A stretch of DNA of 40,030 nt from Nitrospirota bacterium (GCA_016180645.1 JACPAV010000012.1:62001-102030), one strand, 5' to 3'. Numbered from the stretch's first letter, positions 30,967 to 39,886 are shown. Notes: generated by a model from the sequence alone, not told the origin. Numbers and translations are program-made.

Positions 30967-31139
30967 AAGCTATTCCTCCAGTTTGTGTCGACAGACGTGT
31001 CCGGGCAAGAATGGGCACTTCCAAATCACTGCTGGGCAAGGGTAGCTTTCATCCTCGATTTCCACACTGACTTTGGTCAACCCGAAACAGGACTTAGGAT
31101 CCGTTTGAAAACCCCATCATTGCCGGGGCGCATCTCTTG

Positions 31140-31262
31140 GTAGGCGCACCCCCATGCCGAGGACGGTATGGGGCCATGAGATGTCGCCGTGCCACGGATG
31201 GCACGGCATGTCACATGGCCTTTAGGGTGCGTTTTCGGACGCAGGCTAAAGCCTGCGGCTAC
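31140..31262. repeat. GTAG REP doublet; the left REP is interrupted by the 67-bp element
   Basis: GTAGGCGCACCC[insert+CC]TTTAGGGTGCG ... CGCAGGCTAAAGCCTGCGGCTAC. Confidence 0.82.
31152..31218 (+). mobile_element. 67-bp structured miniature insertion element, copy A
   Basis: CCATG...CATGG ends, flanked by CC on both sides; 53/67 identical to copy B without gaps; removing it restores a perfect REP hairpin. Confidence 0.75.
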
Positions 31263-31452
31263 CGGTCCAGTGCGTTTTCAAACGAGGCCTGGTGCGGATT
31301 CGAGGCAATCTCATAGCCCCGCTGGAAAGACGATCTTTTCCTTGATGGCCGTCATCACACGGGTTTTCAGGCTTTGGCATAGTGCTGCACAAATGCGTCA
31401 GCAGTGCCACTGCTCTGATTCGATATCGCACGCACATTCCATGCGTGAATAC

Positions 31453-31508
31453 GTAGGGGAGGGTGTCTACACCCTCCCAATCGGGAGCATCTGAAGATGC
31501 TCCCCCAC
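31453..31508. repeat. GTAG/GTGG REP doublet upstream of the molybdoenzyme RBS
   Basis: GTAGGGGAGGGTGTCTACACCCTCCC-aatc-GGGAGCATCTGAAGATGCTCCCCCAC. Confidence 0.85.
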
Positions 31509-31534
31509 GAACACGTAGAAACGAGGAGGTTCGC

Positions 31535-34204
31535 ATGAAGCAACAGATAACCCGAAGAGATTTCATGGCGACAACCGCCGCCGGCTTGGGCAGTTTCCTC
31601 GTTCTGGAAACCCTTCAGAGTTGCGACGGTGGCGGGAAAAAGGAAGAAATCTGGAAGACACCCCCGGACCTTCACGCCGCCTACCCGATCGAGTTCACGG
31701 AGGAGACGAAGTACACGAGCTGCTGGATCGGCAAACAGGATTGCGGGATGACGGCGCGCGTTCTCACGCAAACGATCGGGGACCGGGAAGTCAAGAGGAT
31801 CGTCAAGTTCGAAGGAAATCCTGACAACCCACGAAACAACGGCACGCTCTGTCCGAAGGGTTTCGCGCAGCTTCAGGGTATCTACGACTACAACCGCGTG
31901 AAAACCCCCCTCAAGCGAACCAATGCCAAGGGAGAAGCCGGCGCGTTCGTCCAGATCAGTTGGGACGAGGCCCTGAACACCGTGGCGGACAAGCTGAAAG
32001 CCGCCAAGAGCGCCTCTTCCTATGTCTTGTGGCAGAAAGGGCGGAGCAAGTCGGAGCCTCTGTATGACGGCGCGTTCATCAATGCGATGAAGGAGGCGGG
32101 CTACAAGAATTACAAGATCGGCCACGGGGCCTACTGCTCGGATAGCGGCTATCGCGCGGCGGAGTATACGATCGGCTACCATGGCGTGTACCACCCCGAT
32201 TTCAAGAACACCAAGTACCTCCTCTCCTGGGGATGGAACCTCACGAGCGCCGGCGGGAACAAGTTCTGCTTCATCACGTGGCCGCAGGAATTCGTGAAAG
32301 CCCGGGCCAACGGAATGAAGGTGGTGGCGCTCGATCCGTTCCGCCGGGGAACCGGCCCGCACGCGGACGAGTGGATCCCCAACAAGCCGGGCACGGACCT
32401 CGCCTTCTTCCTCGGCCTCCAGCACTACCTCGTCACGAACGGCCACCTGGACAAGGACTATCTCAAGACCTACACCAACGCCCCGTACCTCGTGAAAGAC
32501 GATGGCACGGTGGCGAAGGTTACGACCACCGCCTCTGACGGCACCCAGACGTCGAAGGAATTGGTCTGGGACACGAAAACGAGCGCGGCCGTCGCCTACG
32601 ACACCGCGGGCATCGACCCAGTGCTCGACGGCTCCTACACGGTGGACGGCGCAACCGTCAAGCCCGCCCTTGAAAGGATGAAAGACCACCTGACGGGCAA
32701 GGGCTACACACCCGCATGGGCGGACTCCACCTGCGATATCCCTTCTGGGACCGTTGAGCGCGTGGCCAGGGAATTGGCGTCCAACGCGAACATCGGCGGG
32801 ACGACCACGATAGACGGCATCACCCTCCCCCTTCGCCCCTCCGCGATGATGGCCTACCATGTGACCCAGCAGGAACTTGGGATGCCCGCCGGCCGCGCGG
32901 CCATCATGGTGTTCATGCTCCTGGGCGCCGTGGGCGTGCCGGGGGGAACCCAAATAGACATCGGAGCGACGGCCCTGCATGAGAACTACAAGAAATTGGA
33001 CGAAGCCGGCATCAAGGACGGCCCCTACAACTGGGATCTCAGCGGCAGCAAGTTCTTCCCCATCAAGACCACGAATCCATCCTTCCTGGCAAACATCTGG
33101 CTTAACCCGTCCAAGTACGGTGTGAACGAGGCGACGCTCCCGAAGGTCGCGATCTTCCACATGAACAACGGCGCCGTGTCGTTCGCGGACAGCAAGACGA
33201 TTCGAGAGGCGTGGAAGAGGATCGAGTTCGTGGTGGACATCAACCCGTGGCTCTCCGATACGGCGAGTCTCTTTGCGGACGTCATCCTACCCGCGGCCAC
33301 CATCGAGAAATACGAGGGACCGGGCAGCGGCAAGGCGCTCTATGAGAAGGCCGATTCCCTCCGAATGCCCCCGATCCCGGCGCTGTGGGAGTCCCGCGGC
33401 GAGATGGAGATCTACATCGACATCGCCGACCGGGCCGGGTTCCTCACGGGCGACAAGGGCCTTGTCGCACAGCTCAACAAGGAGCTGTCGCTCTCGGGCA
33501 ACAAGATGGATGTGAGCTCCAAACCCACCGTGCGGGACATGTTCGATCGCTGGGCGAAGGACAAGCTCGGCAAGGCGGACGGCATCGCCTACCTTGAGCA
33601 GCACGGCAACACCGGGCGCAAGGCGATCTCGGCGAAAGACGCCTATCCCGCCGCCCAAAGCTATGCGGGAGCGAAGCACCGCCTGTACGGCGAGTCGCTC
33701 CTCAAGTACCAGACCACGATGAAGGGAAAAGGCGTGGAAGCGATCTACTACCAGGACTACACGGCGTTCCCCACGTGGAGGGCGCCGACGATGTATTCCT
33801 CGCCGGGCACGTATGATCTTCACTTGATCAGTTACAAGAAGATCGAGCACAAGCAGAGCCGGTCGAGCTTCGTGCCCTTGCTCGCCGAGCTCGCGCCCAA
33901 ACAGGGTCTGGTCATCAATTCCGCAACGGCGAAGGCGAAAGGCATTGCCGAGGGTGATGCCGTGACCGTGACCAGCCACAATGCCGTTACGGGCGAGACG
34001 CGGTCGATCAGGACCGCCGCCCGCCTCGTCGAGAGTATCCGCCCGGACACGGTGGCCCTGTCGCACCATTACGGGATAACGACGCACCCCAACGCGAAGG
34101 ACCAGGGGCCCACGCCAAACGAGCTCTTCTTCACGAGCGAGGGCTACGTCCAGTGCACGATGGATGCGTCCTTCCAGGTGAAGGTCGGCGTCTCCAAAGC
34201 GTAA
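31535..34204 (+). CDS. Tat-exported lipoprotein DMSO-reductase-family molybdopterin catalytic subunit, Arr/Arx-like
   Basis: RBS GAGGAGG; ITRRDFM twin-arginine, LQSC lipobox; CWIGKQDC..GTLCPKG; ISWDEAL; KGRSK; GHGAYCSD; KPGTDLA; SDTASLFADVILPAA; IRPDTV. Confidence 0.9.
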   Translation: MKQQITRRDFMATTAAGLGSFLVLETLQSCDGGGKKEEIWKTPPDLHAAYPIEFTEETKYTSCWIGKQDCGMTARVLTQTIGDREVKRIVKFEGNPDNPRNNGTLCPKGFAQLQGIYDYNRVKTPLKRTNAKGEAGAFVQISWDEALNTVADKLKAAKSASSYVLWQKGRSKSEPLYDGAFINAMKEAGYKNYKIGHGAYCSDSGYRAAEYTIGYHGVYHPDFKNTKYLLSWGWNLTSAGGNKFCFITWPQEFVKARANGMKVVALDPFRRGTGPHADEWIPNKPGTDLAFFLGLQHYLVTNGHLDKDYLKTYTNAPYLVKDDGTVAKVTTTASDGTQTSKELVWDTKTSAAVAYDTAGIDPVLDGSYTVDGATVKPALERMKDHLTGKGYTPAWADSTCDIPSGTVERVARELASNANIGGTTTIDGITLPLRPSAMMAYHVTQQELGMPAGRAAIMVFMLLGAVGVPGGTQIDIGATALHENYKKLDEAGIKDGPYNWDLSGSKFFPIKTTNPSFLANIWLNPSKYGVNEATLPKVAIFHMNNGAVSFADSKTIREAWKRIEFVVDINPWLSDTASLFADVILPAATIEKYEGPGSGKALYEKADSLRMPPIPALWESRGEMEIYIDIADRAGFLTGDKGLVAQLNKELSLSGNKMDVSSKPTVRDMFDRWAKDKLGKADGIAYLEQHGNTGRKAISAKDAYPAAQSYAGAKHRLYGESLLKYQTTMKGKGVEAIYYQDYTAFPTWRAPTMYSSPGTYDLHLISYKKIEHKQSRSSFVPLLAELAPKQGLVINSATAKAKGIAEGDAVTVTSHNAVTGETRSIRTAARLVESIRPDTVALSHHYGITTHPNAKDQGPTPNELFFTSEGYVQCTMDASFQVKVGVSKA

Positions 34205-34218
34205 GGAGGTAACGAACC

Positions 34219-35034
34219 ATGGCACGATACGGAATGGTCATCGATCTCTCAAAATGCATGGGCTGCCGCGCCTGTATGGAGGCGTGCAAGACGGAGAACG
34301 GAACGCCCCTCGGCCACTTCTTCATGTACACGTTCCGATGGGAAGAGGGAACGTATCCGAGTTCCACGATCCGTTTTCTGCCTCGCCCGTGCAACCATTG
34401 CGACAACCCGCCCTGCGTGAAGGCCTGCCCCTACGATGCGCGGATCAAGTGGAAGGGCGGGCTCGTTCTCACCGACGTGGACAATTGCCGCGGCGTGCGT
34501 TACTGCGAACAGGCCTGTCCCTATGGCGTGAACTATTTCAACGCCAAGAAGCCCGAGGAGAACTACGGGCTTGATTACGGCCACGCGGACCTTGCAAGCA
34601 CCACCGGTGGCGCCGTCCCGCCGTATTGGAAACCGGAACTGGAGAAGGCGTACTCCTGGGACGAGGATCCCAAGAAAAAAATAGAACGGCGCGTGGCAGG
34701 CGCGGGACACCGCGAGAACACCGTCGGGAAATGCACCTTCTGCGTCCACCGTCTGGAGAACGGCATCACGAAAACGGCCTGCCAACAGGCCTGCCCCGTC
34801 GGTGCGATCATCTTCGGCGATCTGGACGACGCCGGCAGCGACGTGGCCAAGGCCTTGGCCTCGCGCAAATCGGAAACGTTCCGCCTCAAGGACGTGGCCC
34901 AGACCGAGCCCAAGGTCTACTTCATCGGCAAAGCCCCGGCCGCCGCGGCTCACCTCATTGAGCAGATTCCCATTCCGGCCGACGTTCAGAAACTGGGCAA
35001 GACCGAATACGAAGGGGGTACGATCCCCTGGTAA
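34219..35034 (+). CDS. Four-cluster Fe-S subunit (DmsB/ArrB-like)
   Basis: RBS AAGGAGG; MARYGMVIDLSKCMGCRACMEAC, CNHCDNPPCVKAC, CRGVRYCEQAC, KCTFC..ACQQAC. Confidence 0.93.
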   Translation: MARYGMVIDLSKCMGCRACMEACKTENGTPLGHFFMYTFRWEEGTYPSSTIRFLPRPCNHCDNPPCVKACPYDARIKWKGGLVLTDVDNCRGVRYCEQACPYGVNYFNAKKPEENYGLDYGHADLASTTGGAVPPYWKPELEKAYSWDEDPKKKIERRVAGAGHRENTVGKCTFCVHRLENGITKTACQQACPVGAIIFGDLDDAGSDVAKALASRKSETFRLKDVAQTEPKVYFIGKAPAAAAHLIEQIPIPADVQKLGKTEYEGGTIPW

Positions 35035-35100
35035 CAAGCCCACCCCCACGGGGATCCTCCCCCACGAGGGGCCATTCCTTCGTAGAAAGCGAAGCATCCC

Positions 35101-35226
35101 GTAGGGGAGCAGCTTTAGCTGCTCCCCAGAAGGGAGGACCCCGTGCCACGGAGGGCACGGGGCCATGCAATGTCGCCGCGCCAGGGGTGGCGCGGCATGG
35201 AACATGGCCTGAAGGTTCCCCCCTAC
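35101..35226. repeat. GTAG REP doublet; the right REP is interrupted by the 67-bp element
   Basis: GTAGGGGAGCAGCTTTAGCTGCTCCCC..GGGAGGACC[insert+CC]TGAAGGTTCCCCCCTAC; 57 bp without the insert. Confidence 0.82.
35141..35207 (+). mobile_element. 67-bp structured miniature insertion element, copy B
   Basis: CCGTG...CATGG ends, flanked by CC on both sides; same length and fold as copy A. Confidence 0.75.
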
Positions 35227-35933
35227 ACCGCCAAACCGCCTATCGTTTCTTCGCCGGCCTGCTTCTCTACCCCGAGCCCGACCGCATCGAGCACCTGAAA
35301 GCCGCCGCCCGGTGGCTGGCGGAGGGTGACGCCGTAAATCGTGAACCCGTGAACCAGAGCCGAGGAATCGGCAAACGGACGGACGGGATCACGGGATCAC
35401 GGGATCACGGGATCACGCAAGCCGTCCTCTCCCTCAACGGCGACCTCCAGGACGGAGGAAGTGCCGCGGGAGGGCGGGAGCCCGGAGCAGCCAATCTCGC
35501 CGACCTGCAATCCGACTACGTCCGCTTCTTCCGCTCCAGCCGCCATGACTTCTGCTACCCGTACGAGGGAGCCTACGTGGATCCGGAGATGAGCGCGGCT
35601 CTCTCGTTCCGGCTGGAGTCCGAATACGCCCAAGTCGGCGTCCAACTCTCCGTCAAGGATTTCCCCGACCACGCGGCCACGGAACTTGAGTTCATGTCCT
35701 ATCTCTGCGGACTTGAAGCGCGGGCGGCGATGGAAGGGTACGGAGATGCCGTGGCCGGCTGGCGCCGCCGGGAGCAGATTTTCCTGCGTGACCACCTGGG
35801 CAGATGGTTCCCCCAGTTCGCCCGTCGAGTGGGCGAAACGTCCAGGGGATTCTACCGCGGCGTCTGCGCCGGGGCGGCCGACTTCATTGCCTCCGACAAG
35901 ACCTGCCTGGAAAGGCTGACCCCCGTCATGTAA
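35187..35933 (+). CDS. TorD/DmsD-family molybdoenzyme chaperone
   Basis: YRFFAGLLLYP, DYVRFF, PYEGAY, PDHAATELEFMSYL, FLRDHLGRW. Start uncertain: the frame is open back to CTG 35028. Confidence 0.88.
   Translation: MARHGTWPEGSPLHRQTAYRFFAGLLLYPEPDRIEHLKAAARWLAEGDAVNREPVNQSRGIGKRTDGITGSRDHGITQAVLSLNGDLQDGGSAAGGREPGAANLADLQSDYVRFFRSSRHDFCYPYEGAYVDPEMSAALSFRLESEYAQVGVQLSVKDFPDHAATELEFMSYLCGLEARAAMEGYGDAVAGWRRREQIFLRDHLGRWFPQFARRVGETSRGFYRGVCAGAADFIASDKTCLERLTPVM
35383..35417. repeat. (ACGGGATC)x4 perfect tandem repeat inside the torD-like gene
   Basis: Units start at 35383, 35391, 35399 and 35407, followed by a partial ACG. Confidence 0.9.
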
Positions 35934-38364: not shown

Positions 38365-38421
38365 GTAGGGGAGCATCTTCAGATGCTCCCGCCTTGGGAG
38401 GGTCAAAAGACCCTCCCCTAC
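38365..38421. repeat. GTAG REP doublet (57 bp)
   Basis: GTAGGGGAGCATCTTCAGATGCTCCC-gcctt-GGGAGGGTCAAAAGACCCTCCCCTAC. Confidence 0.88.
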
Positions 38422-39829: not shown

Positions 39830-39886
39830 GTAGGGGAGGGGTCTATCCCCCTCCCGTAGGGGGGAGCCCGCAAAGGGCTCCCCTAC
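39830..39886. repeat. GTAG REP doublet (57 bp)
   Basis: GTAGGGGAGGGGTCTATCCCCCTCCC..GGGAGCCCGCAAAGGGCTCCCCTAC, 24 nt after the regulator stop codon. Confidence 0.82.

Follow-up and report, generated by a model that had tools for sequence, protein, structure and literature searches.

The 40,030-nucleotide stretch of a Nitrospirota genome analysed here (the window, contig C60:62001-102030 of the source genome) carries two copies of a 67-bp hairpin-forming element, each lodged in a repetitive extragenic palindromic (REP) sequence. We are highly confident that they belong to a family of insertion elements mobilised in trans, which enter at CC^T (the caret marking the point of insertion) and leave a 2-bp duplication. 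The element is multi-copy and non-coding and the window encodes no enzyme for it, in line with an earlier note on this DNA, which had described it as non-autonomous. Two genomes were compared: the source genome (G000; 4.72 Mb in 65 contigs, 60.8% G+C) and G001 (84% complete), the only other genome of the same GTDB family, class and phylum.

The element and its insertion sites

Copy 1 lies at 31152-31218 and copy 2 at 35141-35207, both 67 bp long and on the + strand. They align without gaps at 53/67 identity, start with CC(A/G)TG, finish with CATGG and are bracketed by CC dinucleotides on the same strand, at 31150-31151 and 31219-31220 for copy 1 (the left one being one copy of the duplicated target dinucleotide) and at 35139-35140 and 35208-35209 for copy 2. 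Removing the element together with one CC restores a REP hairpin at each site, as the earlier note had it: GTAGGCGCACCC-TTTA-GGGTGCG at the first and GGGAGGACC-TGAA-GGTTCCCCCCTAC at the second. Uninterrupted REPs of these two kinds, types B and C, number 76 and 44 in the source genome, the second host being a mildly degenerate version of type C. Copy 1 splits the junction of 5' arm and loop in its type-B host (GTAGGCGCACCC / TTTAGGGTGCG, 31140-31231, + strand), which forms a doublet with an uninterrupted type-A partner REP on the minus strand (31240-31263, reading GCAGGCTAAAGCCTGCGGCTACC on the + strand). Copy 2 breaks the second hairpin (GGGAGGACC^TGAAGGTTCCCCC) of a GTAGGGG-type REP doublet at 35101-35226. 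This doublet measures 126 bp, that is 57 + 69, and two intact doublets of the same kind (38365-38421 and 39830-39886, paralogous empty forms) measure 57 bp apiece, bearing out the claim that the interrupted doublet shrinks to that length.

The family extends well beyond the window and far exceeds chance expectation. An iterated nhmmer search of the source genome returned 80 matches, 59 of them full length at exactly 67 bp (49 distinct sequences), the others being 59-66-bp variants, three split copies and a few fragments. The genome-wide tabulation of flanks that the earlier note had called for gave constant boundaries, with the ends 5'-CC[A/G/T]TGCC ... CATGG-3' and with CC on the left in 56 of the 59 copies (TC in 3) and on the right in 55 (TC in 3, CT in 1); GG is found on neither side of any of them.

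When 22 diverse copies were aligned, 40 columns proved invariant and a common fold emerged, made of hairpin X1 (positions 1-20) and a long hairpin (23-67), closed by a helix of 23-27 with 63-67, which encloses an inner hairpin X2 (35-56). This fold is conserved in 96.4% of the alignment cells and is accompanied by double changes: the pair 3-18 is AU in 10 sequences, GC in 8 and unpaired in 4, and the pair 39-52 is CG in 14 and UA in 7. The pair 5-16 is G-U in 13/22 sequences, and so pairs on the + strand only. X1 and X2 are up to 19/20 identical, lie in direct orientation, and both have a GGA loop and are closed by CC...GG. Terminal inverted repeats are limited to the 5-bp match of CCATG with CATGG; the variable position 3 covaries with position 18 and not with the right end. 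Read on the minus strand, the element shows CCATGCC / GGCATGG repeats, 7-11 bp in length and extended by 7 and 2 bp, a pattern for which the likeness of the two hairpins would also account simply. No GTAG head is present in the element consensus. When the host stem is included in the folding, the + strand takes the shape of a three-way junction, with copy 1 reaching -61.5 kcal/mol (z -7.4) and copy 2 -57.8 kcal/mol (z -4.5); the minus strands of the two copies also fold strongly (z -5.4 and -6.6). No Rfam family reaches its gathering score anywhere in the window, the best match overlapping a copy attaining 15.6 bits for a gathering score of 70, and matches in 31000-35400 are at chance level only.

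Variants of the element were also seen. G001 has a 76-bp form (loci L152, L153, L154 and L060) with an additional small hairpin, TCCGCCGCGGCGGA, in the X2 loop, and a 64-bp form with a shortened X2. Hairpin X1 occurs by itself (20 bp) at C23:9941-9960 and C46:16992-17011 of G000, in the C23 case at the tip of a host hairpin. As for the setting of the two window copies, copy 1 has a multihaem cytochrome gene and a molybdopterin oxidoreductase gene as neighbours, and copy 2 lies in sense orientation within a molybdoenzyme operon, flanked by a 4Fe-4S subunit gene and a chaperone-like gene.

To define the target, 93 full-length sites (59 in G000 and 34 in G001) were sorted into 29 host-site classes, sites being placed in separate classes when more than 5 of 24 flanking positions differed. 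C is found at -2, -1, +1 and +2 in 26, 28, 26 and 28 of the 29 classes and T at +3 in 23, with no conservation at other flanking positions, including -3; counted over all 93 sites, each CC flank position is kept in 89-92. As only those positions are conserved across the classes, the target is CC^T on the + strand of the element. The host classes comprise the three REP types, other palindromic repeats, hairpins of sister elements (described below) and a few non-hairpin sites. Type A reads GCGGGC-TGAA-GCC^CGC followed by GGCTACC, type B GTAGNCGCACCC^TTTA-GGGTGCG and type C GGGAGGACC^TGAA-GGTCCTCCC. Empty and filled REPs in G000 number 118 and 29 for type A, 76 (under a strict pattern) and 10 for type B, and 44 and 4 for type C, and 4 of the 15 non-REP sites have uninterrupted look-alikes. 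The empty sites that the earlier note had proposed to look for are thus plentiful but in paralogous form, all those cited here being of this kind with no locus-specific (orthologous) empty allele among them. The earlier description of a REP-targeting insertion stands insofar as the element enters pre-existing hairpins at CC^T, but REPs are not the target as such, the 29 classes including non-REP palindromes.

In the reconstructed empty sites the element enters at the exact edge of the loop in 17/59 cases, 3 nt into the 3' arm in 24/59 (type A) and 1-11 nt off a loop in the other 18/59. Among non-redundant sites, 9/20 lie no more than 3 nt from a hairpin loop whose stem has at least 5 bp, versus 208/1500 random genomic CC^T (odds ratio 5.1, p = 0.0008), a control that includes coding DNA, so that targeting and survival are inseparable in this enrichment. 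Since insertion is mostly at or near the tip of a palindrome, the host stem persists as the outer stem of the three-way junction. Orientation follows the strand that carries CC rather than the REP: in type A REPs, whose GTAG is read from the other strand, the element is likewise inverted, with CC still on its + strand, and type C REPs host it in both REP orientations. No bias of orientation relative to local GC skew, an unverified proxy for replication direction, was observed (34/58, p = 0.24).

The duplication and two sister families

The 2-bp flanking repeat is a real duplication, because three copies have matched flanks other than CC. These are TC/TC at C8:46527 and C18:122517, both in the same type of host repeat, and CA/CA at locus L154 of G001, where the element splits GGGCATGG, a sequence that sister copies carry uninterrupted. 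Five further copies in the two genomes are changed at one flank (TC/CC twice, CC/TC, CC/CT and CC/AC).

The three split matches in G000 are full elements, each with another element inside, and these inner elements belong to two sister families, E2 and E3. E2 (66-67 bp, CCTGGCC...CCGCTG) is found at C21:24882, C21:25419 and C60:60440, the last just outside the window, and nested at C32:34940 and C5:34388; its flanks are TA/TA in 4/5 copies and TG/TA in one. E3 (64 bp, CCAGCCAAGG...GCACGG) is found at C20:85015 and nested at C18:142527, with CA/CA in 2/2 copies. The three families are homologous, as an nhmmer profile built from six sister copies alone recovers the whole 67-bp family. The flanks of the nested E2 and E3 copies are likewise duplications, since the uninterrupted consensus of the host element has a single TA or CA at that place.

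One E2 copy, C21:24882 (66 bp, TA/TA; region C21:24836-24978), has entered a tRNA-Arg(ACG) gene, at U33-A34 of the anticodon loop. Without the element and one TA, ARAGORN reports an intact 75-nt tRNA; as found, the gene is reported with a 68-nt intron at position 37. Intact copies of this tRNA gene are located at C3:73605 and C29:67035, and the paralogous array on C29 has the uninterrupted gene beside the same tRNA-His. The two paralogous arrays (C21:21779-25649 and C29:62471-67783) hold tens of tRNA genes, besides a dispersed set, and include odd calls such as tRNA-Stop(TTA) and tRNA-Asn(ATT); with introns allowed, ARAGORN gives a total of 126, many of them doubtful.

The 67-bp element might have no mobility of its own, being a REP variant with an expanded loop, or else a gene for a structured RNA, and propagating solely along with REPs or through recombination; its strong fold, the sense orientation of copy 2 in an operon and the agreement between element subtype and REP type (see below) would all suit such an origin. 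However, non-REP sites account for 15/59 G000 copies and, in G001, for 9 or more of the 29 host-site classes, in every case with a precise 2-bp repeat; some copies are nested in sister elements, one copy is present in an unrelated metagenome-assembled genome (MAG), and no Rfam family is matched at gathering score (15.6 bits versus 70). We regard a non-mobile origin as extremely unlikely. Overall, the element has constant boundaries, CC flanks and paralogous empty sites and is without an Rfam match, so nothing that the earlier note had named as fatal to its interpretation was observed.

Candidate mechanisms of transposition

Seven transposase families were profiled in the two genomes. Y1_Tnp gave 7 matches in G000 and 8 in G001, IS110 DEDD 3 (one full gene) and 1, Resolvase (PF00239) 2 (one large serine recombinase and one match in a very long frame) and 0, DDE_3 0 and 2, rve 3 and 0, and DDE_Tnp_1 0 and 2; TnpB gave none in either.

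Tentatively, and at somewhat less than an even chance, we favour a non-autonomous element moved by orientation-specific exchange at a 2-bp core, as in IS607. The exchange would be conservative. One core dinucleotide would be carried by the element, probably on a circular form with the joint CATGG-CC-CCATG, a 12-bp palindrome around the core, and the target would have to offer an identical dinucleotide. Recognition of the two hairpin/palindrome sites would fall to a recombinase acting in trans. In favour of a core that goes with the element count the family-specific flanks of the homologous sisters (TA and CA), the fixed orientation and the near absence of extra-CC scars. In a second step, the REP machinery would copy REP and inserted element together and so be the source of most present-day copies. 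Tn4451/Tn5397, with a GA core, are similar to the IS607 family in this respect. PMC6188088 describes IS607 as inserting only at GG, a dinucleotide also found at its termini; it has subterminal repeats but no terminal inverted ones, and shows no further preference for particular targets. On this account our element resembles the IS607 family (IS607, IS1535) in having a single fixed dinucleotide (GG, or CC when the other strand is read) at the target and both junctions, no terminal inverted repeats, repeated subterminal sites and hardly any other target preference (PMC6188088). It differs from IS607 in being 67 bp long and gene-less, in its hairpin sites with covariation, in its enrichment at hairpin tips and in its rare matched non-CC flanks, and IS607-type TnpA/TnpB are found in neither genome.

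Several points weigh against this reading. No small IS607-type TnpA or TnpB was found in G000 or in the 84% complete G001, and neither assembly yielded a partner recombinase; MAGs often lack insertion sequences that are multi-copy. Neither assembly contains a longer element sharing the same ends, such as the copies with an IS110 or HUH/RAYT gene that the earlier note had proposed to look for, and no circle-junction or head-to-tail sequence is present in the assembly. In four DNA runs of one study the region is represented only by Logan contigs that end at repeats, with joints and loose ends derived from paralogous REPs, and no polymorphic locus, locus-specific empty allele or circle junction was seen in these contigs. 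The matched TC/TC and CA/CA copies are unexpected, as a CC donor should not recombine with a TC target, and duplication by a staggered cut fits them more simply. The helix covariation, with a G-T pair that forms on the + strand only, hints at a single-stranded form, which a double-strand serine recombinase does not require. The samples of the sister families are small (5 E2 and 2 E3 copies), and the preference for hairpin tips may be partly a survival effect. It is the missing enzyme, the TC/TC and CA/CA copies and the hint of a single strand that keep our preference for core exchange tentative.

Duplication by staggered cut would be natural for an ordinary miniature inverted-repeat transposable element moved by a DDE transposase, with the flanks as a true target-site duplication; IS630/Tc1 (at TA) and IS30 make such 2-bp staggered cuts. 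The duplication mirrors the content of the target (TC/TC, CA/CA), the TA/TA of the sister family E2 resembles an IS630-type duplication, G001 has two DDE_3 matches, and a small (67 bp), non-coding element with 80-82 copies and a target-site duplication is what would be expected. CC is non-palindromic, however, and always on the element strand (GG in 0/59), and the logo is one-sided, with T at +3 in 23/29 classes and no preference at -3; a two-fold symmetric transpososome is not expected to yield a one-sided, strand-fixed target. Nor are terminal inverted repeats maintained, position 3 covarying with position 18 inside X1 rather than with the right end. Each of the three related families, with a dinucleotide of its own, would call for a separate enzyme. 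None of the DDE families tested is present in both genomes (DDE_3 0/2, rve 3/0, DDE_Tnp_1 0/2), and REPs scarred by an extra CC are almost absent. The non-palindromic dinucleotide, the strict strand rule, the one-sided logo and the three dinucleotides in three families together argue against a symmetric DDE transpososome, and make this model rather improbable.

A single-stranded form would be accommodated by 'peel and paste' transposition through an enzyme of the Y1 (HUH) type, be it a RAYT or a TnpA like that of IS200/IS605. In that case the element proper would measure 69 nt (67 plus the 3' CC) and be inserted 3' of CC in single-stranded DNA without duplication, with the same-strand hairpins as its left and right ends. 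The hairpins are indeed near-identical (up to 19/20), direct rather than inverted and equipped with a GGA loop on the same strand, there is covariation along with a G-T pair confined to the + strand, and the element resides among REPs, which are themselves Y1 substrates. Y1_Tnp is also one of only two families, out of the seven tested, with matches in both genomes (7 and 8). IS200/IS605-derived palindrome-associated elements have similar same-strand hairpins at both ends and no inverted terminal repeats, a pairing that our element shares; unlike IS200/IS605-type elements, it makes a real 2-bp duplication and its targets lack a 4-5-nt motif, while neither a strand bias nor a TnpA/TnpB partner was seen. 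The real duplications at TC and CA sites argue against this chemistry, because the right dinucleotide would travel with the element and each of the three matched non-CC copies would need a coincident change on both sides. In IS608 a guide segment lies 5' of the left hairpin, but X1 begins at base 1 and leaves no space for one. The absence of an orientation bias relative to GC skew (34/58, p = 0.24, with skew as an unverified proxy for replication) lends slight further support to this objection. Finally, the Y1 genes are without flanks of element-type hairpins; other repeats are found there, and the nearest element copy is 1.7 kb off. We therefore consider Y1 transposition unlikely. Some of the Y1 proteins are long (240-360 aa, at G000 C48:52212-54576 and four further G000 loci and at eight G001 loci), score about 71 bits against the RAYT cut-off of 80 and have a weak DnaA-C-like helix-turn-helix; each of their genes is bracketed by its own inverted repeat of 15-25 bp.

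The link with IS110 elements suggested in the earlier note is not supported. The element would be a miniature IS110/IS1111 derivative, mobilised in trans by a DEDD recombinase with its guide RNA. Each genome has one IS110-family gene, that of G000 scoring 246.9 bits with NF033542, and PMC1525189 and PMC5896051 report insertion of IS1111-type elements into REPs. According to PMC11187229, such elements have one copy of the apparent duplication, and their subterminal inverted repeats, of 11-13 bp, are extended asymmetrically by 7 and 3 bp, to which CCATGCC / GGCATGG on the minus strand of our element, with extensions of 7 and 2 bp, can be compared. The same source gives each IS110/IS1111 element one RNA-selected site (PMC11187229), whereas the present element occupies 29 unrelated targets with only CC^T in common. 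Its 67 bp are too short to encode a guide RNA, and three families with three cores cannot match one guide; the 29 targets and the small size thus argue against guide-RNA recombinases of this kind. Element-type ends were not found around any of the IS110 loci (L008, L009, L010 and L071), and the two IS110 genes are single-copy and about 70% alike in short stretches only. A derivation from IS110/IS1111 is accordingly very unlikely. A different repeat, of about 115-165 bp and 75-82% alike, was noticed downstream of the IS110 gene on C10 of G000 (L008:2846-3008), with look-alikes on at least 10 contigs, including C60:26174-26249.

Besides orientation-specific core exchange and these alternatives, we considered that the 67-bp element and its TA and CA sisters might constitute a superfamily of self-nesting hairpin elements with an undescribed hairpin-to-hairpin reaction, a possibility that seems doubtful. 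In this scenario the element would form a circle of about 69 nt, folded and perhaps single-stranded, whose CC...GG-closed hairpins would serve for its recognition. The circle would be joined into the tip of another, extruded hairpin at the 2-nt core borne by the element, the enzyme being a Y1/RAYT-like protein or another recombinase. The REP stem would be preserved, and the element would act as a hyperparasite riding REPIN/RAYT amplification.

Probable spread with REPs, distribution and significance

The 59 full-length G000 copies are hosted by type A REPs (29), type B REPs (11), type C REPs (4) and other sites (15), and their sequences differ according to host. Copies in type A mostly have A22 and CA/TG at 39-40 and 51-52, those in type B T39/A52 and GA at 8-9, and those in type C G3/C18 and AG at 43-44, and the 15 at other sites form a diverse set. 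Pairs of copies are on average 0.904 identical in type A, 0.909 in type B, 0.975 in type C and 0.845 in other sites. The type-A subtype is also found within type A REPs of G001, and type B REPs of G001 hold at least 12 near-identical 64-bp copies. This tracking of REP type by element subtype in both genomes points to amplification of a composite of REP and element. Two RAYT genes in G000, for proteins of 156 and 157 aa (100.5 and 88 bits for an NCBIfam cut-off of 80), are flanked, one by type C REPs and the other by type A/B REPs. Most REP-borne copies have therefore probably spread with their host REP via RAYT machinery rather than by fresh insertion: an insertion at the tip leaves stem and head of the REP usable, and the composite would be copied as a REP is.

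For the two window copies, which the earlier note had taken as independent insertions, residence in different REP types indicates at least two insertion events, but not necessarily at these loci, many REP-borne copies being probably secondary. REPs with the scar of an extra CC are nearly absent (0/164, 0/46 and 1/245), a pattern compatible with precise excision or with none.

REPIN/RAYT systems are already known (PMC3116915). Like REPINs and RAYTs, the present family consists of small GC-rich hairpin repeats in dozens to hundreds of copies, in a genome with REP-flanked RAYT genes, and the composite of REP and element appears to spread as REPs do. Unlike REPINs, the element has no GTAG head, lies beside no Y1 gene, and sits inside REPs with a 2-bp repeat as well as outside them. 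IS1397 is another insertion sequence that targets REPs. Full-size examples in PMC1525189 and PMC5896051 are IS1111 in the REP of QMITE2, ISPpu9/10, ISPa11 and ISPsy8, which share with our element the landing in REPs or palindromic repeats in fixed orientation; they are autonomous, about 1-1.5 kb long and have a single target each, in contrast to a gene-less 67-bp element with many targets.

A covariance model built from 22 copies gave 82 matches in G000 and 71 in G001, and none in a domain-wide sample of 99 further genomes. When the species genomes of GTDB were all scanned with a pattern, 50 loci emerged, 37 of which are chance matches; among the 13 with a full element, 12 belong to one groundwater Nitrospirae MAG, probably G001, and the remaining one to a Planctomycetota MAG from the same campaign. 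The latter copy (L098 / L122), the sole one of its genome, lies within a 164-bp block that is 98.2% identical to G000 C17:209172-209334 and consists of the 67-bp element (at C17:209245) nested in an E2-like element, within the GGA loop of its X2 hairpin. As the block is near-identical and the surrounding genes are unrelated, it has either been transferred between organisms or lies on a contig foreign to the Planctomycetota bin. A scan of metagenomes gave 28 loci with no real copy among them and two weak model matches of 25-27 bits.

Small repeats that enter other repeats have a parallel elsewhere: Elhai et al. (2008) reportedly described small dispersed repeats of 21-27 nt in cyanobacteria, another phylum, which apparently insert into other repeats and hairpins. 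In the open-access literature we found no gene-less element of less than 70 bp that lands in the tips of REPs and is carried along by them, or that has family-specific 2-bp flanks.

Two of the insertions lie within long reading frames. At G000 C17:146784-150428 (L172), a type A REP with the 67-bp element is in frame and stop-free in a DnaE-like frame of 1215 codons, the element forming residues 642-664 between the DNA_pol3_alpha and finger domains, where a paralog on C25 is shorter by about 56 residues; an ortholog of this gene that could serve as an empty site was not found in G001. At G000 C44:85170-88115 (L173), a composite of the same kind is in frame in 982 codons (residues 520-542), in the linker between ABC ATPase and MacB/FtsX permease domains. 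In practical terms, then, these elements break assemblies, lengthen proteins in frame in two long frames and, through one sister copy, split a tRNA gene.

REPs and REPINs are the commonest repeats of bacterial genomes and are known targets of full-size insertion sequences. The element described here is a parasite of a parasite in an uncultured groundwater bacterium: the host stem is left intact by the insertion, the element is then probably replicated as part of the REP, and each sister family has its own 2-bp flank. The element combines a real 2-bp duplication and a strict strand rule with a pair of same-strand hairpins and an absence of inverted ends, an unusual mix that no single known chemistry of transposition explains neatly. 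The enzyme, if found, could show that a serine or DEDD recombinase acts on a very small substrate, or that Y1 enzymes perform a new reaction.

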